The notes: generated by a model from the letters alone, not told the origin. A stretch of 64,000 bases of DNA from an uncultured Spirochaetota bacterium (GCA_963835575.1 CAWIGG010000004.1:320001-384000), one strand, 5' to 3'; shown: positions 4,901-35,512, counted from the first letter of the stretch. Translations and numbers: made by a program.

Positions 4901-5781
4901 AAAGAAAATGTCATAAACCGCCTGATAAAGCTTTCGGAAAAAATCAATTCCGAGTCCGCCCTTCTGGACGAAAACCGTTTTGTCCTGCAGTGGCTTTCCT
5001 ATTATTCCGCGATTGAGGCAGACATTATAAATAAAAAGCTCTTAATTGAAAAAAACCGCATCCAGGGAATAATCGGAATCCTTTCTGAATCGGAAGACGT
5101 GATCGCGGATTGCCTGATCGAAGGGGACAAAAATCTTTATATTTCAATTAAGGAAAATCTGGAGTCCATGCTCCGGATGCTCCGCCACAGCCGGCAAATC
5201 TCGTTCAAAGCCCTGCCCGTGGAGGCGCTCCAACTCTACCTGGCTTCATTTCAGAACGTCATCCGGAAAAACGATTCTAATGAAGGCCTCAAAATAAGCC
5301 TGGAAAAGCTCTTCGGCTATCCGCTGGAAGCCGACGCCTGGGAAGAGGCCGTATTTCCGGCAAGGCTCGCGCCGTATTATACATCCTGGCTTGACAGCCT
5401 CCTGCAGAACACGGGACTCGTCTGGTTCGGCTGTGGAAAAAAAAAGGTTTCCTTCGCTTTTCAGGAAGACCTCGAACTATTCGAGGATCAGTCCCGCCGT
5501 CCGGAAAGCATGACTAGTCTGGAAGAGGGAAAACGTTACAGTTTTTTTGATATAGCCGGACTGCTTGATCTCAATTCGGAAAAAGCCTCTGAAACAGTAT
5601 GGAACATGGCATGGAAAGGCGTCATCGGCAACGATTCCTTCGAGACAGTCAGAAAGGGAATTCAAAACAAATTTTCCGCCTTTAAAATACAGGATCAGAA
5701 GTCCCTCAGCCGCCGCTCCGGCCAGAGCCGCTGGGAATCCAGCCGGCCGATCCTGGGAAGCTGGTACGCTTTTACGACAGC

Positions 5782-7456
5782 TTGCCTGTCGGTTATTTCA
5801 TTTTCGGAGTCAAACCAGCCCCTTACAATAAGCGGGCAAATAAAAATTTTGTCAGCTTAGCTGATTTTAATAATAAATTTCGAATAATCGATACTCAGAC
5901 TATACAAAATCCTCTCTATTTTCTCAAATATTGGGCATATTTCATAAAATTATGCGCAAGGGATACCCAGCATAGCTCCAAATTCACTTTCCGTTGACCT
6001 CTGTAAACTGTCTGAACATAACCCTTCTGTGTTTTGATGTTTGAAAATACGTGTTCTTTACCTATCCTGCGGTTGTATATCTTTTGCCCTTCTTCGCTGT
6101 AAAGTTTTGTTAAATAAGCATCAATCTTAGACCGATTATTCAATTCAAACTCACTGAAAATTACTGTCTTTTGCTGTGTTTTCGGTTTGATGTTTTTATA
6201 ACACTCACTGAAAAATGGACATCTTTCACAGCCCTTCCGTGAATACAAAAATGTATATCTTTGGTTATTTCGATCTAAATACCCATTTTCCTTACGGCCG
6301 CCCCGGCATCCCAGGATATATTCGTCATCAATCTTTTCCAGTTTAAAGTCTCTTCGCTTCTGTGATTTATCACTGAAATCCCGCTCTTTCGTATCCACAT
6401 AAAGGTCTTTTCCTTCCTCCACCATCCGGATTGTCTCTTCCATGTCCTGAAAACCCGAATCAAAAAGGTATTTGCTAGCCTTATCAACTTTTAATTCCGC
6501 TTTTTTCTGTTCCACCCTCTTTACCATTTCTTCCGTATGCTGTTTTTCCGGTGTTGTGATTGCTTCAAAATCTATAATCACATCATTATTACTGACCATC
6601 ATCGCCGAATTATATCCCTGTATAAACACACTATGCGGATTTCCAGACATCAGCTTGCTTTCGGGATCAGTCAGGTTGGTGAATTCTTCGTCTGTCTTTT
6701 CCCCTCTCTCTACCTGTTTTTTGTATTCATCGATTTGGTTCAAAACACTATCGTAAATCTTTTTCCGCCTTGATACCCGCTTCTTCTCCGCTTCGTAATA
6801 AGGCTGCTCCAGCTTGCCTTCCCGGTAAGATTCTTCCAGTTCCAGGTCTTGTTTCACAATCTTTTCCGCCATCTTCTGGTAAGTGTCCATCAGCTTCCGG
6901 GTATGTTTCTTTCCCACATTCTTATTCTTACTCGCGTAGGCCTTGATCTTTGTGCCGTCACCCACTACCATGTCCCAATCTATAGACCCCATTTCGTTGA
7001 GTATATATAAAAGCTGGCTGAACAACTCCTCGATCTTTTCCTGAAAAAGTACCTTGAACTCGCAAATTACCGAATGGTCAATTTTCAGCCGGTTTGAAAC
7101 ATACATAAACCCAATGTGTTTTTTCAGCAAATCTTCTATCTTTCGGCTGATACGATTTCCCGTAATGTAACCGTAGAGTACCGCACAGATCACATCCCGA
7201 GGATTTTTAATCTCTCTGCCTCTATGGTCGTTCTTATAGTAAGCCGCGAAATCCTCCAGTTTAATACGGTTTTTGATGAATTCTTTTAGTATAAATTCTC
7301 TGGAATTCTCATCAAACTGCTCGCCTATATTGATCGCGAGGAACTCACCCTGCTCCAGGCTGTTCTTTTCAAATCTTGCCATCTTTTTCTCCCGTTTTAT
7401 TTTAACGGGAACCCTGCCGTATGTCCATGAAGCATGTTATAAAAACCGACAGGCAA
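5782..7456 (-). mobile_element. IS1182-family insertion sequence, 1675 bp
   Basis: Terminal IRs TTGCCTGTCGGTT (5782-5794) and AACCGACAGGCAA (7444-7456); 4-bp target duplication CAGC (5778-5781 and 7457-7460). Confidence 0.9.
5916..7382 (-). CDS. IS1182-family DDE transposase
   Basis: Motifs DGTKIKAYAS, NLTDPESKLM, QGYN, DSGF and YNRRIGKEHVFSNIK...RG.RKVNLE; 488 aa. Confidence 0.85.
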   Translation of the reverse strand: MARFEKNSLEQGEFLAINIGEQFDENSREFILKEFIKNRIKLEDFAAYYKNDHRGREIKNPRDVICAVLYGYITGNRISRKIEDLLKKHIGFMYVSNRLKIDHSVICEFKVLFQEKIEELFSQLLYILNEMGSIDWDMVVGDGTKIKAYASKNKNVGKKHTRKLMDTYQKMAEKIVKQDLELEESYREGKLEQPYYEAEKKRVSRRKKIYDSVLNQIDEYKKQVERGEKTDEEFTNLTDPESKLMSGNPHSVFIQGYNSAMMVSNNDVIIDFEAITTPEKQHTEEMVKRVEQKKAELKVDKASKYLFDSGFQDMEETIRMVEEGKDLYVDTKERDFSDKSQKRRDFKLEKIDDEYILGCRGGRKENGYLDRNNQRYTFLYSRKGCERCPFFSECYKNIKPKTQQKTVIFSEFELNNRSKIDAYLTKLYSEEGQKIYNRRIGKEHVFSNIKTQKGYVQTVYRGQRKVNLELCWVSLAHNFMKYAQYLRK

Positions 7457-8194
7457 CAGCCGTAAAAGAAAGCGACCCGATAGAAGAAGTCGAGATGATA
7501 AAAAACCGCGCCCGCGTCCTATTCGACCGTTACGGCGTTCTTTTCAGGGAGCTCATCGCGAACAAACTGCCGGCCCTGCAGTGGGGCAGGCTCCTGAAGG
7601 TCCTCCGGCTGATGGAACTTTCCGGCGAGATCATCCCGGGCTACTTTTTCGAAGGCATACCCGGCCTCCAGTTCGCCTCCCATGAGGCCTTCCGCTTTCT
7701 CAATAAGGTGCTGCCGGAGGATTCCGTTTACTGGCTGTGCGCCGTCGACCCGGCGTCCCTCTGCGGCATCAAGCCGGAAGGATTGAGGCAGAAATTCCCT
7801 AGAAGGATTTCATCTAATTATATGGTTTTTCATGGAAGGGACCTGGTCCTGACAATCGAAAGGGACGGCAGGGCGCTCGAATTCACCGTTGAACCGGGCC
7901 TGCCTCAGATTCAGAAGTACCTGGAGGTATTCAAGACGCTCCTGACAAGGGAATTCAATCCCCTTTCTGCCGTCCGTGTGGAGAAGATCAACGGCATCGC
8001 TGCGGCGGAGAGTCCTTATAAAGAGGATTTGAAGAAGTTCGGGTTTCAGGCAAGCTATAAGGGACTGGAATTGTGGAAGTATTAGAATTATAAAAGATAA
8101 CTATAGTATTTAAACACTTTTGTTTTTTAACACGAAGAGCACGAAGATTATTAACGATTCATTGATTATCGGATTGAAAATTCTAACTAATGGC

Positions 8195-8882: not shown

Positions 8883-11402
8883 TTACTTAAAGAATTTCTT
8901 CAAGTCTTCTTCCTCTTTGCCCTGTTCGACAAGATAGAATTCTACACTATCATTAATCTGCCCGAATGGGAGTTCCAATTGTTCACAATGTTCAATGGTT
9001 TTTCTTTTCTTCTGCTCAGTCATAAAATTTAAAACTTTTTGCTTATATAATGTATCTGCATTTCCAGCCAAATGTTCGCCTTTGCTTTCAAGAATATAAA
9101 CTAATTCAAGTTTACAAGTATCATTTTTCTTTGCAGCTACAAAGTCGGGGCGGAGTTTGTATTCCTGCCATCCTTGGATAGAATACCAATTTCTTGAAAC
9201 CTTATTGCGGAACCACCAGAGTATTTTTTCCTGTTTGTCGAGAATATCACCAACTGTTTGTTCAAGCGTATTCATTGCAGAAAGGTCAACATCATCGAAA
9301 AGGTAATATTTATAGGGATTGGGCATACGTCCGACAACAATATAATCTTCTTCGGGTATTTTAAAACCAAGATCAGGGTCATCCGACACGGCAAGAATAA
9401 TTTTCTTTGTTTTTAGGTAATCAACAAAAAGTTTTTCTTCAAGTTTTACTTTTTCTTTTGAAAGCAGTTCGAACATAAAAGCGGATATATAACCGAAATT
9501 TTCTTCCACTTTTTCTTTCCCAATCCCGGCAATTAAAGCGTCAATATGGTTTGAAGCTAATTTTCGCGCAAAGAATGGGTTTTCTGTCAGTTCTGTATAA
9601 CGGCGTGTAAGGTAATCGATGTTGATTTCTTTTATACCATTTATTTCAGTTCTTTCTAACTTGGCTGTAACCATACTCGATTCATCAAGAGTAATAATAA
9701 TTGAATGACGTTCTTTTGTTTCTTCGCTGAATGAAGCTGAAAGACGATCAATGAAACCGTTAATCCGGAAAGAGGAAAAATCTATAAACGGTTTTATATC
9801 CAGTTCATAAGAAAAACGGTGTTTCCGTTCTCCTTCATCAATCATTACCCATACTGGAAGATAAAAAGCGCTTTCATATTTTGATTTAAATTCTTTACGG
9901 ATATTTACCTTTTTCGTTTTGTTTATTTCGTTGTTGTCGCTCACCTTTATTTTTGTAATTAAGTCTTCAAGTCCTTCGTTTTTAAATCCTGTATCAACTT
10001 TTTCCAGAATGGAGCGGGTGTCGCCCTTGGAATAATAGATATAACTTTCATCCAGTTCGGGAATACCCGTTTTTCGCGCAAAAGGCTGACGGAGAATCCG
10101 TCCTACAAGCTGGGTAATTCCGGTATCGGAATTGACATTTGGAATAATGCCGAGAATATACGCAAAGGAGCAGTCCCAACCCTCGCGGAGGGCTTCTTTA
10201 GTTATAAGATAGCGTATATTACAGTCCGGGGCGAAAAGGTTTTTATCTTCAATATCATTCTGCGCGCTTGTTTTTATGGCGATTTCATCCGGGTTTATTT
10301 CCAGTTCCTGCAAAAACTCCTTCACATCAAGGCTATGAACGCCGTGTTTGCCGCGCTGGTCTTTTCCCGTAGATTCCACCTGAATAAGCGCAATAGGTCT
10401 GATATAAAGTCCTGAGTCCTGGCGGTATTTGATAGTTCTTTTTTCCAGAGCGTCCCGGTGAGCTTTTATCTCCCTGAGCATGGATTTCCAGTCGTCTTCT
10501 TTACGGCCTGAAGGCGGAATAATGTGCATATCCAGCTTGACCATTTCCTCGTCTTTCAGTTCAAGGCCGGAAATGCTCACATGAATATTCATTTCCGCTT
10601 TCGGCGTAGCGGTTAGCCCGAGAATCATTTCCGGATTGAGCCCGTCAATGGTTTTACGCGCCATATCCGAAAAGACTTTGTGGATTTCATCAATGATAAT
10701 AAAAGGTTTTGAAAGGCGGATAGCGTTACCGAGGCTTGTTCGTACAACCGGCCCGATTTCAGTTAAGAGGTCGAGGTTCGGACAAATTTTTAAAAGTTCG
10801 GCATGAAGATCATACCGGTTATCGGAAGGAAAAAAGCTCTCAAAACCGCCAGAGTCCTGAAATACCTTAAGGGCTTCTTTGCCGTTCTGCCTGCTGATAG
10901 ACTGGATCATAACGAAAAGAACAACAAGGTTTTCCTCTATATCATTTGTGGTTAGTCTTTGCCCTTTTTCCAGTATCAGCGTCTTGTTTCCGCTGGCCTG
11001 GTCGAGGAGCTGGCGGAGCGGGTTAGCCTTATCCCGCAGTTTCTGTACCGTCTGTGAATAAATCGTTTCACTTGGGACAATCCAGACGACAAGTCCCGTC
11101 CGCTTACGGGCAAAAATAGTTTGATATTCGCGGATTGCTTCAACCGCCAGAAGGGTTTTACCGCCCCCCGTAGGCACTTTCATAATAATACGGGGATAGT
11201 ATTCATTAAGGCCGTTTGTACAGCGGTCTTTATATTCTTTATTTAAAGTCTGAAAAGTGGTTTGTACCCAGTTCAGCGTATGCCGCATTTCGGCAGGCAG
11301 GGCTTTCCGGGCCGTATCAAAAGCGTCTTTTGTTTCCCTTGCTTTGGAGTAAAAAGATTTAAGCTCCGATATTACCTTGACCTGGTAATTCTTGAGGAAC
11401 AC
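8883..11402 (-). CDS. res: Type III restriction endonuclease Res subunit (SF2 helicase plus PD-(D/E)xK nuclease)
   Basis: Motifs VPTGGGKT, IIDEIH, LTATP, LREGWD and QLVGRILRQP; C-terminal PDF...ILESKG; GTG start 2 nt after the mod stop. Confidence 0.8.
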   Translation of the reverse strand: MFLKNYQVKVISELKSFYSKARETKDAFDTARKALPAEMRHTLNWVQTTFQTLNKEYKDRCTNGLNEYYPRIIMKVPTGGGKTLLAVEAIREYQTIFARKRTGLVVWIVPSETIYSQTVQKLRDKANPLRQLLDQASGNKTLILEKGQRLTTNDIEENLVVLFVMIQSISRQNGKEALKVFQDSGGFESFFPSDNRYDLHAELLKICPNLDLLTEIGPVVRTSLGNAIRLSKPFIIIDEIHKVFSDMARKTIDGLNPEMILGLTATPKAEMNIHVSISGLELKDEEMVKLDMHIIPPSGRKEDDWKSMLREIKAHRDALEKRTIKYRQDSGLYIRPIALIQVESTGKDQRGKHGVHSLDVKEFLQELEINPDEIAIKTSAQNDIEDKNLFAPDCNIRYLITKEALREGWDCSFAYILGIIPNVNSDTGITQLVGRILRQPFARKTGIPELDESYIYYSKGDTRSILEKVDTGFKNEGLEDLITKIKVSDNNEINKTKKVNIRKEFKSKYESAFYLPVWVMIDEGERKHRFSYELDIKPFIDFSSFRINGFIDRLSASFSEETKERHSIIITLDESSMVTAKLERTEINGIKEINIDYLTRRYTELTENPFFARKLASNHIDALIAGIGKEKVEENFGYISAFMFELLSKEKVKLEEKLFVDYLKTKKIILAVSDDPDLGFKIPEEDYIVVGRMPNPYKYYLFDDVDLSAMNTLEQTVGDILDKQEKILWWFRNKVSRNWYSIQGWQEYKLRPDFVAAKKNDTCKLELVYILESKGEHLAGNADTLYKQKVLNFMTEQKKRKTIEHCEQLELPFGQINDSVEFYLVEQGKEEEDLKKFFK

Positions 11403-11404
11403 TG

Positions 11405-13039
11405 CTAAACCCCCGGACGCTGAAATAGGTTATAGGGTATGCCGACGTATTCAATATTTTTCTCTCTCATATAATCTTCTTCAAGGAAGCAGGCCGGGGC
11501 GTAAACAACAATCCGTTTTTTCTGATTTCCGGCGGCAATCTTTTCCGCAAGGCTTAAATTAAGCGCCATACGGGTTAGTTCTTCAAAGTCCTGTTTATAG
11601 ACAAGGTATATTACCATATCAGCGTGTTCACCGACAAAGTAAGTCTTTTCATTGATAGCAGTCTTGTTTTTCAGACTCTCGCCTGTACAGAGATAATACA
11701 CATACTCCGCAAACTGTTTGTATTCCGGTAATTTCCCGGATAATAGAGTTTCAGCGTCGATGGGAATGCCAACCCGGTAATACTGAAAGCCGGAATCATA
11801 ACCGTATTTCTCAATAGCCCGCTTGACCCGCTCGCGCGTTATGTCCTTGCAGATGTTTTTTTTAGGCTCTGAGGCAGTAGCTTCTGTCATTTGAATGAGA
11901 ATACACTTCCTTTTAATATTTTTATTTTCAATATTTAAATCCATAACAGCTTGCATAGTCGTACCCGAACCAGCAAATGAATCGAGAATGATATCATTAG
12001 GGTTTGAACATAATTGAATAATTCGTTTTATTAATCCAACTGGTTTAGGATTATCAAAAGGAGCATCAAAATCTGGAAACAATTCTTTCAGTTCTTTACG
12101 AGAACTATCTGTATGTCCAACCTCATCATATAACCAAATTGTTAGCGGAACAGTGCCTTTTTGAACTTCATTAAAATATCTTTTTAATTGAGGCGCACCC
12201 AATCCATCTTTTCCAAAAAATACACGCCCTTTATCAATCCATTTTTTCATAGTTTCTTTATTAGTTAACCAACATCGTCCCTTTGTTGGATTATAATCCT
12301 TACCGGTATTTGGATTTTTTATTGGATAATCATAATCCGCCGAATAAGTTTTTACAGTTAAATTATCTGGACGCCAGAATCCTTTGCCATCACTACTATC
12401 AAATTTATAAAGTATATCTTGCTTCTCAGTACGTGGTAAAAGATTTCTCACCCAACCAGTTGAATTACCATTAATTAATTTCTTTTTTGCATAACAAATG
12501 ATAAAATCATGATTATCAGAAAAATATTTTGCATCGTTTGAAGCCGCGTATTTTTTTTGCCATATAATATTTGTAATAAAATTTTCATCACCAAAAAGCT
12601 CATCCAAAACCATACGAAGTGTATGTTGTTCATTATCATCTATTGAAATAAAAATTGCCCCATCATCCGATAGCAGTTCCCTTAAAAGTTTCAATCTTGG
12701 AACCATCATACAGAGCCATTTGTCGTGACGGGTCAGGTCATCCTTACCGACTTCCTTTCCCAGCCATTCTTTGAGCATAGGACTGTTCACATTGTCGTTA
12801 TAAATCCAGCCTTCGTTTCCCGTATTATACGGCGGGTCGATATAAATGCATTTGATTTTTCCGGCGTATTGCGGAAGCAGGGCCTTGAGAGCAAGAAGAT
12901 TATCCCCTTCGATAATTATGTTGCCGTCCGCTTTTTCTGACTGGAAGTTAAGTTTTTCAACCTCGTCCAGGGTATGGTATGGTATTGAAAGGTGGTGGTT
13001 CCAAATGATGTTCTTTCCTTTGAATTGCAGAGTGGGCAT
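11405..13039 (-). CDS. mod: Type III R-M adenine DNA methyltransferase Mod subunit
   Basis: Motifs IEGDNL, YIDPPYNTG, FISIDDNE, FDNPKP and LDSFAGSGTT (beta-class order). Confidence 0.88.
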   Translation of the reverse strand: MPTLQFKGKNIIWNHHLSIPYHTLDEVEKLNFQSEKADGNIIIEGDNLLALKALLPQYAGKIKCIYIDPPYNTGNEGWIYNDNVNSPMLKEWLGKEVGKDDLTRHDKWLCMMVPRLKLLRELLSDDGAIFISIDDNEQHTLRMVLDELFGDENFITNIIWQKKYAASNDAKYFSDNHDFIICYAKKKLINGNSTGWVRNLLPRTEKQDILYKFDSSDGKGFWRPDNLTVKTYSADYDYPIKNPNTGKDYNPTKGRCWLTNKETMKKWIDKGRVFFGKDGLGAPQLKRYFNEVQKGTVPLTIWLYDEVGHTDSSRKELKELFPDFDAPFDNPKPVGLIKRIIQLCSNPNDIILDSFAGSGTTMQAVMDLNIENKNIKRKCILIQMTEATASEPKKNICKDITRERVKRAIEKYGYDSGFQYYRVGIPIDAETLLSGKLPEYKQFAEYVYYLCTGESLKNKTAINEKTYFVGEHADMVIYLVYKQDFEELTRMALNLSLAEKIAAGNQKKRIVVYAPACFLEEDYMREKNIEYVGIPYNLFQRPGV

Positions 13040-22357: not shown

Positions 22358-22521
22358 GGCAGTTCCAAAAACCTTAAGTTTTTAGGAACTGCCCCGATAA
22401 TAAAAACTTTTTGGTTAATGTAAATGACGCTACTGCGTGGAGTTTGCAAAGCAAACTTAGCAGTTGCATGACTTAAAACAATATCGGCAGTTCTAAAAAT
22501 GTGAGTTTTTAGAACTGCCCT
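22356..22521. repeat. Palindromic MITE/REP-like unit between convergent genes
   Basis: Ends AGGGCAGTTCCAAAAAC and GTTTTTAGAACTGCCCT are inverted; each end is also its own hairpin; internal AGTTTGC-AAA-GCAAACT hairpin. Confidence 0.65.
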
Positions 22522-22525
22522 TTAG

Positions 22526-24877
22526 TTATTTTTCAGCGGCGTCCAGAACTTCCCGCACCTTATTGGCCAGTTCTATCATGGAATAAGGTTTCTGGATAAT
22601 GTCGCGCGCTCCCAGTTCTATCGTATCCTGGACCCTTTTATCATTCCTGAAGCCTGAAGCCAGAAGAACTTTCACATCGGGGGCTATCGCTTTCATCTCA
22701 ATATACGCTTCTTTTCCTGAAAGCTTCGGCATCGCCATATCCAGAATAACCAGGTCTATTTTTTCATGTTCCTTTTTAAAAATCTTTACGCATTCATCGC
22801 CGTCCTGCGCAGAAATCACCTGATACCCGCATTTTTCCAGTATCGTTTTCGCCACTTTCCTGACATTATCCTCATCGTCAGCCAGGAGAACCGTTTCATT
22901 TCCCTTTGCCGGTTCCTGTTTTTCCTTTTTTACCGGGACACTCTTTTCTTTATAAAGAGGAAGAAATACCTTGAATTCAGATCCGCTGCCGACTTTTGAT
23001 AATACATCAATAAACCCGTCATGCTGATGCACAATATTATAGACCATGGCAAGGCCCAGTCCCGTGCCCTTGTCTTTTTCCTTGGTCGTAAAGAAAGGAT
23101 CGAAGATTTTCGGCATTGTTTTACTGTCAATCCCCACGCCGGTGTCTTTAACAATTATGACCCAGTACTCATCCTCGCTGGCTTCGGGATGATGCTTGCG
23201 CAGGCGGGCGTCATTCGTTATTTTTTCAAGCGAAAGGCTGAGAATTCCTCCCTGATGTTCGTTTGGTTTTCTCATGATAGTCATGGAATGTTCCGCGTTC
23301 ACGCAGAGATTGAGCAATATCTGCTCTATCTGTGTGAAATCCGCTCTTGCGACAGCCATACTGTCATTAAGATGGACCTGGATTTCCACAGACTTATCAA
23401 AAGTATTTCTGCAGATTTGTATAACACTCCGGAAGACCAGGTTCAAATCCACTGTTGTGAAAGCGATATCCTGCTTCCTGGAAAGCGAGAGCAGCTGGTT
23501 GACCATGTCCGAGGCCCTTTTCGCCGAATCTTCAATAATAGAGATATGTTCTTTCAGGCTCTCTTTTTCAATTTTTTTCGTACTGCCGAGCATATACTGG
23601 ATCAGTGAAACTGAACCGATGACCCCGGCCAGGACATTATTAAAATCATGGGCCAGACCGCCAGCCAGCCTCCCGACAGTTTCCATCTTCTGGGCCTGCC
23701 GGAGCTGCGACTCTTTCCTTTCCAGTTCCGTGATATCATCAAGGCGGATAACCACGCCGCCCGTACCGTTAAACACGAGAGGATAAAAAGATATGTTAAA
23801 ATAGCGCCTTTCCTCTTCAGTTAAAGTTTCCCGCTGGATCTCAATCGGCATTCTCTTTTTTATCACATCCTCAAAATTACCTTCATACTGCTTGAGCGTC
23901 GGGATCATTTCCCATATTTTTTTTGAAACAGCCTCAGAGGCGGGAATTCCCGTTTCTCTTTCCGCCGCCATATTCCACTGAGTGATAATCCCTTCATGAT
24001 TAATGGAAATTAAAACCGAAGCCAGAGAATCGAAAATATTCTTGAGATAATTTTTGGTTTTCCTGAGTTCTTCTTCCGCCTCTTTACGCTCCAGGATTTC
24101 CTTTTTTAATTCTTCGAGGGTCTTTTTCAACTGGATTGTCATTGTGTTGAATTCCAGGGCCAGGGTGCCGATCTCATCATTGGACGATACATGCACAAGC
24201 TTATCAAAGTTACCCTGAATGATCTGTTTCGTGCTTTCAACAATGGATATGATCGGTTTTGTCAGCCTGCCGGCCAGCAATATCGATATGAAAAATGATA
24301 AAAGGATAACAATCGCCGTAAAAACAGCCATCAGTATGCGCGCGAACGCAAAATCCCTGTCCAGTTCTATGAGAGAATTCTCAAAAGATTTTTTTGACTT
24401 GGTGAATGTCTCATCCAGCAATGCGTTCAGGCTGTTTTTATTTTCCTTGAATTTATTCACAATATCCTTTTGCGACTGGAATCCCTCCAGATCTTTTATC
24501 CCGAGAATGGAAGACCCGAATTGATAATAAAGCCTGAAATAAGTTCTGAGCTTCTGCAGAGAAGGCTCTTCTTCCGGGATCCTTTCGGAAAGGTCGTCAA
24601 TATTTTTATAAAATGACTTGGCCAGATCGTCCAGGCGTACTTTTTCCTTCCGGCGGCTTTCAATATCAAAAAGCATTGTGTCCCAGATTTCGGCATGGAT
24701 GCGCATGATGATCAGATAGGATTCCTGGATATACTTTTCAGTCGTGAAATTATTCTCAACCAGCAGATTTATCTTCCGCGCCGACTGATTAAGAAAAACA
24801 AGATTAAAAACAATAAAACCCATAAATAGAAGGATCAATATCCCGAAACCCATCAAGACACGGTACTTTAGCCTCAT
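22526..24877 (-). CDS. Hybrid sensor histidine kinase/response regulator (TM-helical sensor-TM-HAMP-PAS-HisKA-HATPase-REC)
   Basis: Motifs [34 protein letters not shown] and DPFFTTK...GTGLGL; REC domain LADDE...LDMAMP...KP. Confidence 0.92.
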
Positions 24878-25180
24878 AAGCTGCTGTAAACCTCCGGATA
24901 CCCCTTGCCCCTTAAATGAATAAAAGCGATATAATCAGATTACCGCATAATCAGTAATCAATCCGTAATACAAATTGCTGTCAATTAAATCATACATTCA
25001 AAACCGGAATATTTCAATAGCTTTCTTGTTTTGTCTTGATTACATGAAATTCAAATATGAGGGATCCATTGCCCGGCTCAAGATGGAATATGATAAATCC
25101 GTCTTTCGGCCGGAGTGTAATAATTGGATTATAAACCTGTTATTCAGCTTGTTTCTATTTTAACAGGTACCTGATAACAA

Positions 25181-26182
25181 TTATTTCTTTAGAAATCCGA
25201 CAACAAATAAATCTGTTTGAACCGGAATTTCCTTTTTATAAACAGCGTATTTACTGCCGCCGATAGTGATCTCAAATTCGCTTTCATTCACAAGCTTTCT
25301 GCCGAGCTCCCGTATATCCTCAGAATTATCTTTATAAGTCAGCTTATATTCGTCCGGAGCAAACTCATTTTTTGACATCTGCTTCAAATAATCGAACTCT
25401 TTCAAAACCTTGACCTTTAAAAACCTGACTGATGCTTCATTAGCTCCGATAACCATCGAATCTTTAGACATGAAAATGAGCGGGGTTTTTTGTTTTCTGA
25501 GAGCTTCCCGTCCTATCGGCGTTAAATACAAATCACAGTTTATTACAGCTTCCAGTTTGTTTTTATTATATACAGGCATCATATATACTTTTATAAAACC
25601 GTTCCCAGCGATCTCCGCAAAAGGTTCATCAGTCCAGATCAGCTTTTTCGAGGGATTATGCTTTTCATCCGCCAGAAAATACCAGAATATAGTACGGTAG
25701 TCAAAATTAAATGGTATTACAGAAACAAGGTCAACCCAGGGCGCCACAAACCCTACGCCGTCGCTTCCCAGGATCCAGAGCGTCATATAGTTTGTAATTG
25801 ATGAAATCATCAGTTTTTCCGATTTTTCATAAAGACGGATCTTTTCTTTTATTTTATTGGTCGGGAAAGGGGCCATATCCGCGACCATGACTGCGCAGCC
25901 GCTGTCGTTTGTGGCTTTATGATATAAATGTCCCTGTTGAAATTTATATTTTCCCCCGTCTTCAATATCCATTTTATCGATTGATAAATTAATTGTACTT
26001 TCATTCAGGTATAAATCATCCAGAAACAGGTTTAGTTTTTCCACTCCGGCTTTGGAAAAGGCAAAATATCCGTTTATATCGCTAACAGAAGCTTCAACAT
26101 CCGATTTCATATTTTTTACCGAAGACCCGCAAGATGTAATAATAAGAAAAAGAAATGACAGGATAATCAGCTCTTTTTTCAT
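25181..26182 (-). CDS. Stand-alone dCache-domain lipoprotein (putative ligand-binding protein)
   Basis: Lipobox IITSC; dCache-like FDYRTIFWY...NPSKKLIWTDEPF...GNG...MPVYNKNKLEAVINCDL; no cytoplasmic output domain; ATGA overlap with the upstream gene. Confidence 0.65.
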   Translation of the reverse strand: MKKELIILSFLFLIITSCGSSVKNMKSDVEASVSDINGYFAFSKAGVEKLNLFLDDLYLNESTINLSIDKMDIEDGGKYKFQQGHLYHKATNDSGCAVMVADMAPFPTNKIKEKIRLYEKSEKLMISSITNYMTLWILGSDGVGFVAPWVDLVSVIPFNFDYRTIFWYFLADEKHNPSKKLIWTDEPFAEIAGNGFIKVYMMPVYNKNKLEAVINCDLYLTPIGREALRKQKTPLIFMSKDSMVIGANEASVRFLKVKVLKEFDYLKQMSKNEFAPDEYKLTYKDNSEDIRELGRKLVNESEFEITIGGSKYAVYKKEIPVQTDLFVVGFLKK

Positions 26183-27108
26183 ATATTTCTCCCTGTTTTT
26201 AATTCTTCATTATCAATAAAATATCTTTCTTTTATCGCTCTCAATATTTCATCTTCTTTACTGTATGGTATCGGGGCCCTTAAAATGCCGATATTACCGC
26301 TCCCCTCTTTTTTGTCCGGTATGTCCCCCGCATCTTTAATTATAACAGGCCTTGCTCCGTTTTCCTCGATTTCATACACAAGAGATTTCACAGAGCGGTT
26401 GTTTTCACCGCTGCAAATCACCCATATTTCAGAAAGATTTTTTCCTCTTACAGCTTGCGCAATCTCTTCGAATATACCGGACCCCAGGACCCATCCGCAT
26501 ATCCCTTTAAGCCAGAAAATGTTTTCCTTATGAGGGAAACATGTGCTGATATATTTAACAATGGTTTCCGCATCCTTCAGACGGAATGAGGAATAAACCA
26601 GCAAATGGACCGGTTTTCCTCCATCAAAAAATCGAAGTTTTTCTTTATAGTTTTCTATCGTTAAAAAAACCGTGTTAACAGGAAAAATCGAACTGTAATT
26701 ATAAAAAATCATATGCCCTTCATCCAGAAGCATCAAACACTGATAACCCGGCCTGACTTTTTTAATCTCATTTTTAAGCATCGCTATCCAGGGGCAGATT
26801 TTTTCTAATACAGGGGTCCCTTTTTCTTTAGCCGCTTCAATCTCTTCAAGGCTGCCGTCATAACCGCTTACCAGTATCCCGGCACCTGCGGGCAGCTCCG
26901 AGATATTCCTAATATAACGGTAATTATATCGGTCAAACCAGCCTGTTTCTACACCTTTACCGCCCCGTGAATTCCATTCCAGATTTAAATAATATTCAGT
27001 ATTATGATATTTCTTATCTTTTTTCAGATATTCCCAGTAATCTTCTTCAAACTGCTTTTTAATAAAACCGCATCTGCCGTCATTCTGAAAAAAATAAAAA
27101 AAAGGCAT
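26179..27108 (-). CDS. Divergent IspH/LytB-fold [4Fe-4S] protein
   Basis: From ATG 27108 (AGGAGA RBS) the ORF is 309 aa. Three spaced Cys motifs GRCGF, KICPW and GICGW parallel IspH GFCxG, ATCP and xICxA; VICSGENNRSVKSL parallels VVGxxNSSNSxxL. Confidence 0.6.
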   Translation of the reverse strand: MPFFYFFQNDGRCGFIKKQFEEDYWEYLKKDKKYHNTEYYLNLEWNSRGGKGVETGWFDRYNYRYIRNISELPAGAGILVSGYDGSLEEIEAAKEKGTPVLEKICPWIAMLKNEIKKVRPGYQCLMLLDEGHMIFYNYSSIFPVNTVFLTIENYKEKLRFFDGGKPVHLLVYSSFRLKDAETIVKYISTCFPHKENIFWLKGICGWVLGSGIFEEIAQAVRGKNLSEIWVICSGENNRSVKSLVYEIEENGARPVIIKDAGDIPDKKEGSGNIGILRAPIPYSKEDEILRAIKERYFIDNEELKTGRNI

Positions 27109-27122
27109 TGTTTCTCCTAAAA

Positions 27123-28394
27123 CTATTCCCGGTCCGTTCTCAGGTAGCAGTATTGCTTGATGATTTCCCTGATATTCTCTTTGTCCGGTTTTGATATTCT
27201 GCTGATATGAAAACCGCATAAAATTATTTCCATATCAAGGCTTTGCCATTTGATCAGGCTGCAGCCGCGGATAAAACCGATTTGCGGGAAACACATAATG
27301 AATTCGTATTCATTTTTTGTTGAACAGTTTTCAGGCATTTCTTCCATTTCAAGACGGAAACCGTCAAAGGAAATATCGACAAGCTTTGCTTTGATATAGT
27401 TATTTTTATTGGAATCCCAGAGCGAAACCGTACAGTCTTCGCTTTTTATAGGATAAAAACGGTGTGCCGGGTCTGTTGAATTTCTTCCATCCCTCAGGCG
27501 TTTGAATAATTTCCTGTTAATCAGGCGGCCTTCCATTTCAAAATAGGCGCGGATAGTTCCTTTCTGATAAAGAGTGACATGAAAATTCAGGAAAAGCCAT
27601 TCACCATCCTTATTATTTTCCGGCGATATGAATTCCGCTTTCATGCCCGCGGGATAATGTAAATCGACATAATCATAGAATTTTGAATTATACTGGCTCA
27701 GAACAAATTGAACGCCATGAAGAGGAACCTTGCCGTAAATATGGCTGCATGCCGTGGTGAACTGCCTGGCCGCTTCTATCAGCATAACTCCAGGCACATG
27801 GTCATTGGGATGCTCGAAAAAGAAGGAATGTCCCGAATCGATAACAAGATCCGCGTAGAAAATCTTTTCCAGAGTCAAGCCGGGGATATTTTCGATTATT
27901 TCGGCCAATTTCAAGCGCTCAATATTTGAAATATGGATATTTTTCTTATAGAGGATTGAATAAATATCTTTAACTTCTTCATCGGAGAGATGATTTTTTA
28001 AAATATAATTCTCGTTTTTATTGTTTTTACGGTAATAATTATGAAGCAGTCTGATTTCTTTCTGGTCCAATTGATTTGAATGGTCCAGGATATCCAGAAC
28101 TTCCGTGCTTAAAAAATGAGGGATATTAAATAGAACATAATATTTTTCATTTTTATGTTCCGGCAAGGAAATATTTCCCCCGATGATGCTCTTATCATCG
28201 ATATTCTGCAGACGGTAATACTCCAGAAACATATCCTGCTGCGCTTTTGGCAAACTCGGGATAATTATATTTTCTACTGTTTCCTTTTCAAAATAAGCGG
28301 GGATCGCTCTCCGCAGATTTTTTACAAATACATTGTCCTGCAGACTTTTATGGACATATTTTTTATCAAGAGCGGCATCCAATTGTAAAACCAT
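27123..28394 (-). CDS. AfsA-related hotdog-domain protein fused to a C-terminal PilZ-like domain
   Basis: KKYVHK...NVF and HSFFFEHPNDHVPGVMLIEAARQ match the A-factor biosynthesis hotdog motif. The C-terminus has LVDISFDGFRL...IKW...CGFH (PilZ DxSxxG). Confidence 0.75.
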   Translation of the reverse strand: MVLQLDAALDKKYVHKSLQDNVFVKNLRRAIPAYFEKETVENIIIPSLPKAQQDMFLEYYRLQNIDDKSIIGGNISLPEHKNEKYYVLFNIPHFLSTEVLDILDHSNQLDQKEIRLLHNYYRKNNKNENYILKNHLSDEEVKDIYSILYKKNIHISNIERLKLAEIIENIPGLTLEKIFYADLVIDSGHSFFFEHPNDHVPGVMLIEAARQFTTACSHIYGKVPLHGVQFVLSQYNSKFYDYVDLHYPAGMKAEFISPENNKDGEWLFLNFHVTLYQKGTIRAYFEMEGRLINRKLFKRLRDGRNSTDPAHRFYPIKSEDCTVSLWDSNKNNYIKAKLVDISFDGFRLEMEEMPENCSTKNEYEFIMCFPQIGFIRGCSLIKWQSLDMEIILCGFHISRISKPDKENIREIIKQYCYLRTDRE

Positions 28395-28633: not shown

Positions 28634-28844
28634 GTTCTTTTAAACGTTATTTGATCAGTATTTAATTACTGCTTATTATTATATATGATTCAAATTATTA
28701 TTATAACAATAAATAAAAATTTATCAAGAATATTATTTTTCTTATAAAAGAAGAATATTTCCTGAACTGAAAGATTTTCCTATTTGAAAGCTTTAAAAAA
28801 ACACCCATTTAATGATATATTTTAAAATAAGATTGTATTAAAAA

Positions 28845-29165
28845 TCACCTGACAGTCAGAAGATATTTATAAACCATATCCCCGAGGCCGATCCCGCCTG
28901 ATTTTGAGATGTTCTTCGAGTATTCGTTATAGAGCATGTCTTCAAATATATCCTGCTTTAAACCGCCGTTCAGCCATTCATCCTTGGGAACTGTGCTCCG
29001 CATTGATTTAAAGAGCTGATTGATAAAAAGCGACTCAAATTCCTGGGAAACTTCCTTTAATTTTTTATCATCCATCCCTTTATAATTTTTCTTCTCATAC
29101 GAACGGAGCTGATCGCTTTTCATGTTTTCACTGGCCGTAAACAGGCTCTCGCTTCCTATCTCCAT
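28845..29165 (-). CDS. flgJ: Rod-binding-domain-only FlgJ
   Basis: KLKEVSQEFESLFINQLFKSMRSTVP...DIFEDML...GGIGLGDMVYKYL; 106 aa; no muramidase domain. Confidence 0.85.
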   Translation of the reverse strand: MEIGSESLFTASENMKSDQLRSYEKKNYKGMDDKKLKEVSQEFESLFINQLFKSMRSTVPKDEWLNGGLKQDIFEDMLYNEYSKNISKSGGIGLGDMVYKYLLTVR

Positions 29166-31824: not shown

Positions 31825-34272
31825 ATGGTAAAGATCGATATGCATGTTCATTCAAGCCATTCCAAACATCCCTCAGAATGGTTCCTTCAAAGGCTGGGAG
31901 CGGCCGAGTCTTATACAGACCCTGAAGTTGTCTATTCAAAAGCGAAAGAAAATAACATGAGTTTTGTCACTCTTACAGATCATAATACAATTGACGGGGC
32001 TTTGGAACTCCAGAAAAAATACCCTTCCGAAATAATAACTGGAGTTGAAGCCACAGCTTATTTCCCGGAAGACGGATGTAAAGTCCATATTCTGGTCTTT
32101 GATATTAACAAAAGCCAATTCCAGATAATAAATAATATCAGAGAAAATATATATTTACTAAGGGATTACATCAAAAAAGAAAACCTTGCCTATTCCGTAG
32201 CGCATGCCAGCTATTCCATCGACGGAAAATTAAAAACGGAACACCTGGAAAAGCTGATACTTTTATTCGACATATTCGAAGCACAAAACGGCTCAAGGAA
32301 CAGGCGCCTGAATTTGGATTGGACTTCGCTTTTGTCCTCCCTGACCCCGCATGATATAGACAAATTGTATCAGAAACATAAAATAGAGCCTTACAGTTCA
32401 AACCCCTGGATTAAAGGCTTTACCGGAGGGTCCGATGATCATGCCGGCATCTTTATCGGGAAAACCTATACCTGTGCGGAAACGGAAACAAAAGAAGGGT
32501 TTTTGGAACTCCTCAAATCTAAAAAGACCCTTGCTTCAGGAAGGCATAATCATTTTCATGGACTTGCCTTCGCGATCTACAAAATCGCTTATGAGTTTTC
32601 CAGAACAAAAAGTAAGGTACTATCGGACCATTTCTTCAGCAGGCTGACAGAATTGATCTTCAATCAAAAAGAACTCAATTTAAAGAGCAAATTGGTCTTA
32701 AAAAGCCTTAAAGTTAAAAAGAAATCGATGAAACCTTATCAGATGATCGCCGATCTGATTGAAAACCTGCGCAATAGCAACTTCAGCAACATAGACGATA
32801 CGCTGTCGGCTGTTTATGATAAAATAGCCATGATCTCCGATTATTTTATAAAACATTTTATTGAATCGATCAGAAAAGACCTGGAAAAAGGAAATATTAT
32901 ATCTATTTTTAAAGATATTTCAATTTCGCTTCCCGGGATATTCCTGTCCCTCCCGTTCCTGACCGCTTTCCGGCATCTTTTTAATAACCGCTATCTGGTT
33001 TCTGAACTGTCGGCAGGTCTCAACATGTCATCACTCCACAATCCTGATAAGAAAATCCTCTGGTTCACCGATACGCTGACGGACCTGAACGGCGTATCGG
33101 TTGTTTTAAAAAAAATTGCCGGACAGAGCTCACTCAACAATAAAAATTTAAAAATTCTCACAAGCCTGAATAAAAATGAGATCGTTGAAGAACTGCCGCC
33201 GAATATAATGGTTTTTGAGCCTGTTTATTCATTCAAGATACCTTACTATGAAAATCTCAGTATTAACATTCCTTCCCTGTTGAAGGTCCTGAAGGAAATA
33301 TATCAATATGATCCCGATGAAATTTATATATCAACCCCCGGTATTATCGGTTTGATCGGACTTTTCGTCTCCAGGCTGATGAATATAAAGGCCGTAAGCG
33401 TTTATCATACGGATTTTATGCTGCAGGCCGAGAAACTGGCCGGGAATGAATCCATAACCTCCATGGTGGAAAATTATATCCGCTGGTTTTATAACTTTTC
33501 AGACGAAATAAAAATTCCTACAGCGGGCTACATGGAAATTCTCGAAAAGCGAGGGTATCTCCCGGAAAAGATGAGCCTTTTCAGAAGAGGCTATGATGTT
33601 GAGACATTCAAGCCCAGAATGAAAAAAAGCATGTATTTCAAAAACCGGTTTGATTTGAAAAAGGGAATTAATCTTCTCTATGCCGGCAGGATTTCAAAAG
33701 ATAAAAATCTTGACCTGCTCATTGAAGCGTTTTTGAAAGCTTCCAGGGAAGGAAATAATATCAACCTTATTCTCGCAGGGGACGGACCTTACCTGACCGA
33801 ATTGAAAAACAAAATAAAAAATGAAAAAAGAATACTGCTGACTGGAAGGCTTCCTCATGAGGAAATGCCTGAAATCTATTCCGACGCCGATATATTCGTT
33901 TTCCCCAGCACGACAGACACATTCGGAATGGCTGTTCTTGAAGCCCAGGCCTGCGGCGTACCGGCGGTTGTCACCGATGTCGGCGGCCCCAAGGAAATCA
34001 TTCAGGACGGTATTACCGGCTTAGTGGCAAAGTCCGGCGATATCAATGACTGGGTAGAAAAGATAGAATTTCTCTGCCGCTTAATAAAATATAAACCCAG
34101 ACGCTACGGTGAGATGTGCCTGGCATCATGGCTAAGGATGATGGAAAACTACAGCTGGGAAAATCTTTTTAATGATATATATGAGAAAAAACCGGACAGG
34201 AAGAAATTAAATATTAAATACCGGCCAAAAAAAAGAAATCTTACAACAGAGCTCATTGCGAGTCTGGAATAA
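31825..34272 (+). CDS. PHP-domain phosphoesterase / GT4 glycosyltransferase fusion
   Basis: N-terminal DMHVHS, LTDHNT, GVE, H, GGSDDH; C-terminal GT-B fold NGVS, YHTDF, YAGRISKDKN, FPSTTDTFGMAVLEAQACG.P. Confidence 0.85.
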   Translation: MVKIDMHVHSSHSKHPSEWFLQRLGAAESYTDPEVVYSKAKENNMSFVTLTDHNTIDGALELQKKYPSEIITGVEATAYFPEDGCKVHILVFDINKSQFQIINNIRENIYLLRDYIKKENLAYSVAHASYSIDGKLKTEHLEKLILLFDIFEAQNGSRNRRLNLDWTSLLSSLTPHDIDKLYQKHKIEPYSSNPWIKGFTGGSDDHAGIFIGKTYTCAETETKEGFLELLKSKKTLASGRHNHFHGLAFAIYKIAYEFSRTKSKVLSDHFFSRLTELIFNQKELNLKSKLVLKSLKVKKKSMKPYQMIADLIENLRNSNFSNIDDTLSAVYDKIAMISDYFIKHFIESIRKDLEKGNIISIFKDISISLPGIFLSLPFLTAFRHLFNNRYLVSELSAGLNMSSLHNPDKKILWFTDTLTDLNGVSVVLKKIAGQSSLNNKNLKILTSLNKNEIVEELPPNIMVFEPVYSFKIPYYENLSINIPSLLKVLKEIYQYDPDEIYISTPGIIGLIGLFVSRLMNIKAVSVYHTDFMLQAEKLAGNESITSMVENYIRWFYNFSDEIKIPTAGYMEILEKRGYLPEKMSLFRRGYDVETFKPRMKKSMYFKNRFDLKKGINLLYAGRISKDKNLDLLIEAFLKASREGNNINLILAGDGPYLTELKNKIKNEKRILLTGRLPHEEMPEIYSDADIFVFPSTTDTFGMAVLEAQACGVPAVVTDVGGPKEIIQDGITGLVAKSGDINDWVEKIEFLCRLIKYKPRRYGEMCLASWLRMMENYSWENLFNDIYEKKPDRKKLNIKYRPKKRNLTTELIASLE

Positions 34273-34276
34273 AATC

Positions 34277-35512
34277 ATGAAAAAGGAATTGATTGTTTTT
34301 GAAACTGAAAATAAAAAGCCGGGAAATAGACCTCTGGAGTCCATCGAAAAATTGAATGCCTACAAAATCCTTAAATCGGTCCAAAATCCGCCTCTCATCA
34401 GGGAAACGATCGGGAAAATCGTCAGCAGTCTCTATTTTGTTTATGATGATGAAAAAGTGACGGACCTGGCGCAGGACCTGGATAAAAATAAAGAAATCCA
34501 GGCGCTCGGCGTCATTGACAGGCAGGGACAGATAAAGGGAATCATTGTCCGGAATGAACTTTTCAGTCTCCTGGGCAAACCCTACGGATACGATATTGTC
34601 AGGCATAAGACAATAAGCAAATTTATCAAAACAGCGGTCATGTTCAGTTATGAGAACAGTATACTGACTGTGGCAGAGGAAATGAAACAAGCGCTGAACA
34701 GTAAGGATACGGAATATTATATTCTATTCAGGGAAGGCAAAAAGTACGCGGGCGTGTTCAGCTCGATCGATATGATGATCTATTTATCCTTTATGACGCA
34801 AAGGGACATTCAGCTTGCCAGGACCCTGCAGCAGAAAATCGTCAAAGAGGATTATTTTATCAAAAACGAATATTTTCAATTCTGCGGCGCTTCCCGCATG
34901 GCAAAAGACATCGGCGGGGATTATTACCATATGATCAATTATGATGAAGGGAAATGGCTTATCACAATCTGCGATGTCTGCGGCAAAGGGGTGGCGGCCT
35001 CGCTCGTTTCGACCAGCATATCCGGAATGCTGTCGGTTTATAATTTCAAGAACGGTTTTGACGCTTTCATTTCAAAATTCAATCAGTATATTTTAAATAC
35101 TTTTGAATTTGTCACGGCGGTTTTTATAGATTTTAACAAAAAAGACGGCAGCTTGAAGCTGTATGATATGGGACATTCCTATATTTATCTGTTTAAAACG
35201 GGCAAGCTTTACCGGCTGAAGTCCGGAAGTGATAACCTGCCCCTTGGGGTCAGGGCGGAAATATCCCCCAGGGCCGATTCGCTCAAGCTTTCAAAGGGAG
35301 ATATGCTCATCATGATCACAGACGGTATTATCGAAGAGATTAACGAAAGCGGGGAAGAATTCGGGGAAAAACGGCTTTATCAAATTATCAAGAATTATCA
35401 AAGCACGGATATTACAAAAATAAAAGAAATCCTTCTTCAGACCGTTTCTTCCTACCGGGGTCATCTCCCGCAGCATGACGATCTGACCATACTCCTCCTC
35501 AACTATAAGTAA
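34277..35512 (+). CDS. CBS-domain / SpoIIE (PP2C) serine phosphatase
   Basis: Motifs ARTLQ, IGGDYY, ICDVCGKGVAASL, DMGH, ITDGIIE and HDDLTILL; N-terminal CBS pair. Confidence 0.85.
   Translation: MKKELIVFETENKKPGNRPLESIEKLNAYKILKSVQNPPLIRETIGKIVSSLYFVYDDEKVTDLAQDLDKNKEIQALGVIDRQGQIKGIIVRNELFSLLGKPYGYDIVRHKTISKFIKTAVMFSYENSILTVAEEMKQALNSKDTEYYILFREGKKYAGVFSSIDMMIYLSFMTQRDIQLARTLQQKIVKEDYFIKNEYFQFCGASRMAKDIGGDYYHMINYDEGKWLITICDVCGKGVAASLVSTSISGMLSVYNFKNGFDAFISKFNQYILNTFEFVTAVFIDFNKKDGSLKLYDMGHSYIYLFKTGKLYRLKSGSDNLPLGVRAEISPRADSLKLSKGDMLIMITDGIIEEINESGEEFGEKRLYQIIKNYQSTDITKIKEILLQTVSSYRGHLPQHDDLTILLLNYK

Follow-up and report, generated by a model that had tools for sequence, protein, structure and literature searches.

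Introduction

AfsA-family enzymes give phosphorylated butenolides, which require phosphatases of the SabP/SrrP type (PMC7756379, PMC12301235), and the known butenolide loci combine an AfsA enzyme with a phosphatase and a reductase (PMC7756379, PMC12301235, PMC11877004). The elaboration of phosphorylated butenolides to products other than gamma-butyrolactones is described as an open question (PMC7756379). AfsA domains are reported from 12 phyla in a survey whose main text does not contain the string "spiroch"; its figures or supplements may list the phylum (PMC8209734). The present analysis concerns a locus of four genes (22526 to 28394) in a stretch of 64,000 nucleotides from an uncultured Spirochaetota bacterium (GCA_963835575.1 CAWIGG010000004.1:320001-384000). 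This whole stretch is referred to as the window, and coordinates are counted in it unless another region is named; the genome that holds it is G000. The genes lie on the minus strand and encode, in this order, an AfsA-PilZ protein, an IspH/LytB-fold protein, a dCache-type lipoprotein, and a hybrid histidine kinase.

An earlier interpretation made from the sequence alone (the sequence-only reading) had taken the four genes as one circuit that makes, modifies and senses a butenolide-like signal. Its gene limits and orientations were confirmed, and its AfsA, PilZ, IspH and kinase domain calls hold in profile and structure searches (the PilZ call is below the Pfam cut-off, with a model at Z about 13). 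When other genomes were searched, co-occurrence was found for afsA with the IspH-like gene and for the lipoprotein with the kinase, in part for afsA with the lipoprotein-kinase pair (three genomes), and not for the four-gene set. The full set was found in G000 only, and the idea that the four genes form a conserved unit was therefore rejected. The best explanation is a mosaic of a biosynthetic module (AfsA-PilZ and the IspH-fold protein) and a sensory module (lipoprotein and kinase), in which the IspH-fold protein acts on the AfsA product (probability roughly 0.6). The genes, the folds, the conserved residues and the co-occurrence are observed, and the reactions, the cofactor, the ligand and co-transcription are inferred. 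The strongest new result is an apparently AfsA-dedicated family of IspH-fold proteins, found in alternation with HAD phosphatases. The set of four genes seems to be a local combination of this pathway with a mobile lipoprotein-kinase pair.

The IspH-fold protein and its link to afsA

The second gene (26179..27108, minus strand) encodes a protein of 309 residues, and its ATG is preceded by an AGGAG site. A longer start giving 346 residues, proposed by the open reading frame finder, was rejected, since it runs into the upstream gene. The protein matches the LytB family (PF02401) with an E value of 3.4e-6, and the IspH equivalog TIGR00216 is not reached (26 bits against 188). Single-sequence searches of the PDB with three proteins of the locus gave no significant match. 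The predicted model of the IspH-like protein (predicted local distance difference test score, pLDDT, of 84) is matched by IspH structures with Z scores of 20.9, 20.1, and 18.4, and the following match is at 8.4. The best of these is the P. falciparum IspH, at 3.6 root-mean-square deviation (rmsd) over 284 aligned residues. The identity to canonical IspH is about 16%. The protein has the IspH fold, but is not an IspH.

Residues were compared in an alignment of 33 IspH-like family members and 13 canonical IspH proteins. The predicted iron-sulfur (Fe-S) ligands Cys13, Cys105, and Cys204 do not vary in any of the rows that extend over their positions (29, 33, and 33, respectively), and the protein probably holds an Fe-S cluster. 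The active site seems to be rebuilt around these ligands. The His of the AHG motif, which we take to be His74 of IspH, is replaced by Tyr83 in all 33 members (AHG becomes GYD), and the Gln of the QTT motif by Tyr172, also in 33 of 33 (QTT becomes YxT). Trp45 and Trp206 are new invariant residues, and the conserved pocket includes His132, Thr/Ser174, and Arg176. The His of the GHPE motif, equivalent to His124, is retained in 30 of 33. In contrast, the column of the GHPE Glu (Glu126 of IspH) holds Glu in none of the 33 IspH-like members and in all 13 canonical proteins; mutants of Glu126 are described as nearly inactive (PMC8837944). The family forms a branch separate from canonical IspH with 100/100 support, from a bootstrap that had yet to converge completely.

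A profile search of 1.84 billion representative sequences gave 21 proteins at E ≤1e-30 and 29 at E ≤1e-10, followed by the tail of canonical IspH. Some database members of the family carry the IspH label, and the family includes a protein of a Nitrospirota metagenome-assembled genome (MAG) and one of Desulfobacterales. A C-terminal SnoaL domain, an N-terminal extended SDR, or a hydrophobic tail is fused to several members (P0030, P0033, L059 (G133), P0046, P0045). In the ESM Atlas, look-alike clusters of the IspH-like protein, as well as of the lipoprotein, are most frequent in Bacteroidota. No member of the family was found in the plasmid collection searched.

Among 401 genomes of the phylum, 88 were matched by the IspH-like profile. 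Nine of the matches are at E < 1e-75; the remaining 79, all at E > 1e-14, are read as canonical IspH or fragments. All nine strong matches fall in genomes with afsA-PilZ. With G401 and two metagenome loci they make up 12 distinct loci (two further metagenome duplicates were dropped, and about 20 further IspH-like clusters lie outside this count). afsA is at most three genes away in nine of these loci and on a separate contig in three, and the nine linked loci show five gene arrangements, with genes co-oriented, divergent, or convergent. The family is thus tied to afsA in all 12 loci, which supports the "make" and "modify" parts of the sequence-only reading. The IspH-fold protein quite likely serves the AfsA pathway as a dedicated Fe-S enzyme and acts on the AfsA product.

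In G104, the IspH-like gene lies between a multisensor kinase and an SDR, and afsA is absent across 17 kb; separate SnoaL genes and a flavin mononucleotide reductase are found downstream. In L097, the IspH-like protein is sister to the Nitrospirota MAG protein, and the locus holds a LuxR gene divergent from the IspH-like gene, an extended SDR, and an afsA that has no PilZ part and is cut off by an in-frame stop (L097:7842-8369).

Exchange with HAD phosphatases and the predicted reaction

The two HAD families linked to afsA were sought by profile in 33 genomes, of which eight HAD-negative ones (three with partial AfsA, five with no AfsA) were left out of the count; five of the HAD-positive genomes had built the profiles. 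The HADs were found in none of the 10 genomes with the IspH-like gene, versus 10 of the 15 other afsA-PilZ genomes (two as split genes). More telling than this count is the exchange within single genera. G306 and G268 have AfsA proteins that are 79% identical and the same multisensor neighbour: the former carries an SDR and the IspH-like gene, the latter two HAD genes. Likewise, G000 and G206 share the same site between flgJ and dxr, where the former has the IspH-like gene and the latter a HAD. In the AfsA tree, IspH-adjacent and HAD-adjacent proteins cluster no more than shuffled labels do, and well-supported branches force at least two changes between the two gene types. No HAD or SDR remnant was detected in the 303-nucleotide gap between the lipoprotein and kinase genes of G000 or in the flanks of the locus.

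The occurrence of the IspH-like gene in place of afsA-linked phosphatases points to a phosphate ester as the substrate. In the proposed pathway, AfsA-PilZ would condense dihydroxyacetone phosphate with a beta-ketoacyl-acyl carrier protein to 2-acyl-3-(phosphooxymethyl)butenolide. The IspH-fold protein would then take the position held by the HAD phosphatases in related loci: the allylic phosphate would be lost in a two-electron reduction, so that the product would be a 3-methyl butenolide (or the 3-methylene isomer) rather than the hydroxymethyl compound. As the butenolide phosphate is allylic, this seems to be the simplest reaction for a cluster of the IspH type, if the second gene does replace a phosphatase. 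Canonical IspH is described to remove the allylic diphosphate reductively from dimethylallyl diphosphate (DMAPP) (PMC4864966). The assignment of this reaction is put forward at slightly under even odds. The wider proposal, that in spirochaetes and other Gram-negatives the IspH-fold Fe-S family replaces HADs and the resulting signals are deoxy (3-methyl) butenolides, is tentative and falls short of an even chance. Dehydroxylation of an allylic alcohol, as in IspH, is unlikely as stated: the Glu that IspH requires is found in 0 of 33 members, and the gene replaces afsA-linked phosphatases.

Another chemistry within the AfsA pathway is a real possibility, at odds well short of even. The IspH-fold protein might dehydroxylate a free allylic alcohol, reduce the C2=C3 bond, catalyse Lewis-acid hydrolysis or isomerisation, or serve as a non-catalytic Fe-S sensor of redox state or oxygen that gates the pathway. 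An active site as heavily remodelled as this one (Tyr83, Tyr172, Trp45, Trp206) is consistent with such a change. In addition, the extended SDR, SnoaL, and flavin adenine dinucleotide enzymes that occur as fusions or neighbours suggest several downstream steps, and several promiscuous activities are described for IspH itself (PMC4864966). However, the mutual exclusion with HADs is explained most simply if the IspH-fold protein handles the phosphate. SDRs accompany both types of locus, so that the IspH-fold protein does not seem to be a substitute for a reductase, and the conserved pocket (His132, Thr/Ser174, Arg176) would not be expected in a pure sensor.

To our knowledge, no dedicated IspH-fold enzyme is known outside isoprenoid synthesis, and none turned up in the literature searches. 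With its cluster ligands retained, its active site remodelled, and its place in AfsA loci exchanged with that of phosphatases, the family offers a tangible lead to new Fe-S chemistry, and it bears on how phosphorylated butenolides reach products other than gamma-butyrolactones.

The lipoprotein and the hybrid kinase

The third gene (25181..26182, minus strand) encodes a lipoprotein of 333 residues with the lipobox ITS-C18. The Cache match of this protein itself is weak (E 0.0027, below the cut-offs). The dCache call of the sequence-only reading is supported by its relatives, however: dCache_1 is found in three of the ten homologues (E values down to 2.6e-7) and MCP-like_PDC_1 in six, the family profile matches solved dCache domains (6iop, E 1.7e-5), and the ESM Atlas search gave Cache/PDC clusters at 0.98-0.99. 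The fourth gene (22526..24877, minus strand) encodes a kinase of 783 residues. It consists of a transmembrane segment, a helical periplasmic sensor of about 145 residues, a second transmembrane segment, HAMP, PAS, HisKA (His410), HATPase, and REC domains, and the H, N, G, and D motifs were found. The homologous sensor in G276 weakly matches 4HB_MCP_1 (E 1e-4).

The lipoprotein query matched 11 of the 401 genomes; one weak partial match in a longer protein was dropped, which left 10. In nine of these, the lipoprotein gene adjoins one whose product carries the periplasmic sensor domain of this kinase (a split HAD lies between the two in G285, and a contig edge is involved in G399). In the tenth, G276, one of two lipoprotein copies is three genes away from a fusion of the sensor with a PP2C phosphatase. 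The sensor profile matched four of 21 genomes, all lipoprotein-bearing, of which three had built the profile. Given this conserved linkage of lipoprotein and sensor gene, the lipoprotein and the kinase form a unit, and the dCache lipoprotein is quite likely an accessory binding protein of the helical periplasmic domain of the kinase. A complex prediction for the lipoprotein (residues 20-333) and the periplasmic domain (residues 30-180) scored 0.18 against a mark of 0.32 and was not used as evidence.

If the dCache lipoprotein bound the product of the AfsA and IspH-like enzymes and the kinase signalled its presence, the locus would be a closed butenolide autoinducer loop resembling LuxPQ. Such a loop is unlikely. 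An ATGA overlap couples the translation of the lipoprotein gene to that of the IspH-like gene, and pairs of a binding protein and a kinase are well known (PMC8050422). The lipoprotein-kinase pair lies beside afsA in three of the ten genomes (G000, G285, G236). The pair in G236 is another subtype, only 25% identical, with reversed gene order and convergent with afsA; since G271 of the same genus carries such a pair but no adjoining afsA, this could be an independent recruitment. In G206, moreover, afsA remains beside a kinase of the same type (core 60% identical over 528 residues), and both the sensor domain and the lipoprotein are missing from this genome. However, six of the ten lipoprotein genomes gave no AfsA match: G399 in the protein query, and five in the PF03756 search, in which the controls were silent too, although the same family search did detect the afsA of G000. 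G276 has afsA elsewhere in the genome. The sensor domain was absent from the other nine IspH-like genomes in the profile search. In G285, the receptor is 61% identical to that of G000 and is combined with the split HAD instead of an IspH-like gene, hence with a different predicted product; this HAD sits at the position of the 303-nucleotide spacer of G000. Furthermore, afsA usually has Ser/Thr-kinase-AAA-GAF multisensors, chemoreceptors, LuxR, or TetR beside it.

Of the "sense" part of the earlier proposal, the conserved lipoprotein-kinase pair therefore stands, and the connection to the lactone does not find the same support: six of ten lipoprotein genomes gave no AfsA match, and none of the other nine IspH-like genomes gave a match to the sensor domain. 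The pair may sense the AfsA product, at odds well below even, and this is not backed by conservation. In the two-module mosaic, the pair would have been joined to afsA in the G000 lineage, and if it does not read the AfsA product, it would read an unrelated periplasmic ligand. The joint proposal, namely that the IspH-fold family strips the phosphate to give deoxy butenolide signals and that a dCache lipoprotein on a hybrid kinase with a four-helix-bundle sensor reads the signal here, is improbable.

Some further lipoprotein regions should be mentioned. In L087 (G276:C13:85000-100000), a lipoprotein homologue is near two SDRs, a condensation-type acyltransferase, a histidine phosphatase, a chemoreceptor, STAS and HATPase genes, and the sensor-PP2C fusion. 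This region looks like the remainder of an afsA locus whose afsA sits on another contig. In three genomes of the g114 genus (L082, L083, L068), the lipoprotein-kinase pair has a divergently oriented canonical ispH as its neighbour. The nearness of ispH (g114) and of dxr (G000, G206) to these loci is probably due to chance.

The AfsA-PilZ protein

The first gene (27123..28394, minus strand; limits of the reading frame confirmed) encodes 423 residues. PF03756 is matched with an E value of 5.4e-19 (69 bits against a cut-off of 24) by one repeat. In the predicted model (pLDDT 80), residues ~5-30 and 178-293 form a hotdog fold, interrupted by an insertion of about 145 residues. This insertion carries an internal repeat, which was found by profile comparison (hhalign probability 96.9) and was missed by pairwise BLAST. 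The best fold match of the hotdog is FabZ (Z 15.0), and thioesterases are also among the top matches; no solved AfsA structure was among the matches of these searches, which hardly cover the insertion. Glu207 and Arg210 of the ExxR motif are invariant in 23 of 23 homologues. They are equated, by motif and not by direct alignment, with the essential ExxR pairs of ScbA, E78/R81 and E240/R243 (PMC13454427). The one-repeat protein presumably homodimerises, which would rebuild the two-repeat active site. By analogy with the chemistry of the family, AfsA-PilZ is likely to make 2-acyl-3-(phosphooxymethyl)butenolide.

The C-terminal PilZ domain (residues 307-418) is below the Pfam cut-off (E 0.028), and its modelled barrel matches MotI with a Z score of 13.1 (rmsd 2.2, 103 residues aligned). 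RxxxR and D/NxSxxG are the motifs of PilZ domains that bind cyclic di-GMP. Among 38 AfsA-PilZ proteins, a set that holds none from the f15 family, RxxxR occurs in 0 and D/NxSxxG in 26. Since RxxxR is missing in 38 of 38, cyclic di-GMP binding by this PilZ fold is doubtful, and canonical binding was rejected.

The AfsA-PilZ query matched 56 of the 401 genomes, 52 clearly and four in weak or partial form; 36 of the 75 genomes of the f15 family are among them. Twenty regions out of the 55 other positive genomes were examined. Members of the two HAD families recur in them, as do SDRs, chemoreceptors, and large multisensors of the Ser/Thr-kinase-AAA-GAF type, and a TetR gene adjoins afsA-PilZ in G379. 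As a raw count, 18 of the 20 regions have a signalling gene at most six genes away from afsA-PilZ, which speaks for the mosaic reading. In the three f15 regions examined, afsA-PilZ adjoins an SDR and a Ser/Thr-kinase-AAA-GAF-PP2C protein. In two f15 proteins (L051:8436-9701, L053:323-1606), the VHK and FFEH..HVP motifs are replaced and ExxR is retained. Broken genes also occur in the relatives: split HADs in G285 (L035:9702-10369) and G276 (G276:C10:58231-58855), and a split afsA in G316 (G316:C1:1500409-1501425). Decay or assembly error may have led to these, as to the in-frame stop of L097.

The product of the pathway is fairly likely to be a diffusible signal. It might instead be a bioactive metabolite or a lipid, or the hotdog might be a FabZ-like dehydratase or thioesterase, with the nearby signalling genes regulating the pathway rather than sensing its product; this is rather unlikely. 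AfsA domains are described to build antimicrobials such as gladiostatin and to occur in a Roseobacter killing locus (10.1101/766410), and FabZ and thioesterases are the top structural matches. On the other hand, the PF03756 cut-off is passed widely and ExxR is invariant. Moreover, the loci are small, no polyketide synthase, non-ribosomal peptide synthetase, or exporter was seen in them, and they are flanked by receptors, including the divergent LuxR of L097.

A second isoprenoid IspH placed beside afsA by chance, as the LytB/IspH profile matches, the IspH labels of some database members, and the adjacent dxr might indicate, is very improbable and was rejected: the canonical ispH of the methylerythritol phosphate pathway is present elsewhere in the G000 genome, the family is a separate clade (100/100) that has lost the catalytic Glu and one His, and it tracks afsA and not dxr in the other loci, dxr also flanking the locus of G206, where an IspH-like gene is lacking.

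Points against the two-module mosaic

Several observations weigh against the mosaic reading and its proposed reaction. The Fisher p of 0.001 for the exclusion between HADs and the IspH-like gene overstates the case, as kin are not independent and many of the genomes are fragmented MAGs with a completeness of 77-96%. Only five of the 36 positive f15 genomes entered that count, and two sampled genomes of the largest f15 genus have neither a HAD nor an IspH-like gene; some loci therefore do without a dedicated gene for phosphate removal, and in the G000 pathway, too, this step could fall to a housekeeping phosphatase. An SDR occurs in most related loci, and G000 has no close orthologue of it (best identity 30-40%). 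The full ScbA/BarX model NF041195 is not reached (60 bits against 200), there is one AfsA repeat and not two, and FabZ dehydratases are the solved folds nearest to the hotdog. Finally, a Glu-to-Gln variant of IspH is described to have lost the conversion of DMAPP to isoamylene (PMC4864966), and the loss of Glu alone is thus no argument for phosphate elimination. For a protein without this Glu, another proton source would have to serve, or the stabilised keto-lactone enolate might be protonated by solvent.

Locus layout and genome setting

The four-gene locus is flanked by flgJ and dxr, and the named relatives of its proteins are Spirochaetota. The spacings were verified as a gap of 14 nucleotides between the first and second genes, the ATGA overlap between the second and third, and a spacer of 303 nucleotides (24878..25180) before the kinase gene, given earlier as about 300. 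The GC content is 0.38-0.39 in the first three genes, 0.435 in the kinase gene, and 0.45-0.48 in three housekeeping neighbours. The best sigma-70-like site upstream of afsA is at 28700..28727 on the minus strand (11/12, with TG), and two promoter-like sites lie in the spacer, at 25157 and 25017. A hairpin between the convergent kinase and dxr genes (22486..22519; stem of 14-15 pairs, both strands) is a likely bidirectional terminator; both it and the afsA site are consensus matches only. The region holds 25 promoter-like sites versus 17.8 +/- 4.1 in shuffled sequences, a mild excess, and since these counts barely exceed the shuffles, co-transcription is not established.

G000 has a single AfsA gene. 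As noted in the sequence-only reading, the window contains no TetR gene: TetR_N has no match in it and 12 in the whole genome, the nearest about 41 kb from afsA. The flgJ-adjacent site is occupied by afsA in both G000 and G206, but in G276 by a lipoprotein homologue on its own (L088, G276:C11; window 28845-29165), which suggests a variable insertion site. Elsewhere in the window, an Lhr helicase gene (2012-8085) is apparently split by a DDE transposase (5916-7382), its last winged-helix part being at 7273-8085, and is followed by a type III restriction-modification pair (8883-13039). A PHP-domain/GT4 glycosyltransferase fusion and then a SpoIIE phosphatase (31825-35512) are in synteny with G206.

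Comparison with known systems

Literature searches, outside of which most subscription journals lie, gave nothing linking AfsA and butyrolactones with IspH, or IspH with butenolides, and searches on AfsA and butyrolactones in spirochaetes and on AfsA in Leptospira gave nothing on the subject among the matches listed. As had been supposed, no described system with this architecture was found. AfsA-PilZ loci are common in the phylum (52 clear among 401 genomes), their tailoring and sensing modules seem to be interchangeable, and spirochaetes may possess an unrecognised lactone signalling system.

The sensing module resembles LuxP-LuxQ, XylFII-LytS, TorT-TorS, and HptA-HptS, in which an extracytoplasmic binding protein is encoded beside a membrane kinase; LytS has a helical-bundle sensor, as does the G000 kinase. 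The difference is in the accessory protein. The known partners are described as classical solute-binding proteins, with dCache as a domain of the receptor (PMC8050422), whereas the G000 protein is a free-standing dCache lipoprotein. The PilZ domain has the beta-barrel fold of YcgR, MotI, and PP4397 (Z 12.7-13.1) and D/NxSxxG in 26 of 38, and is unlike them in lacking RxxxR (0/38).

The IspH-fold protein shares with IspH/LytB, the (E)-4-hydroxy-3-methylbut-2-enyl diphosphate reductase, the three-lobed fold (Z 18-21), three cluster cysteines, and, in 30 of 33 family members, the His124-equivalent. It differs in its identity of only ~16%, its separate clade, the missing equivalent of Glu126, its tie to afsA, and its coexistence with a canonical ispH. 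The AfsA protein shares PF03756 and ExxR with the synthases AfsA, ScbA, SrrX, SabA, and MmfL, and the related spirochaete loci carry HADs and SDRs, as the Streptomyces loci do. The Streptomyces systems have two AfsA repeats and a TetR/ArpA receptor, whereas here a single repeat with a 145-residue insertion is joined to PilZ in a spirochaete host, with no TetR in the locus. Finally, where the known loci (AfsA-BprA-phosphatase, SabA-SabP-SabD, SrrX-SrrP-SrrG) have a phosphatase, this locus has an IspH-fold protein.

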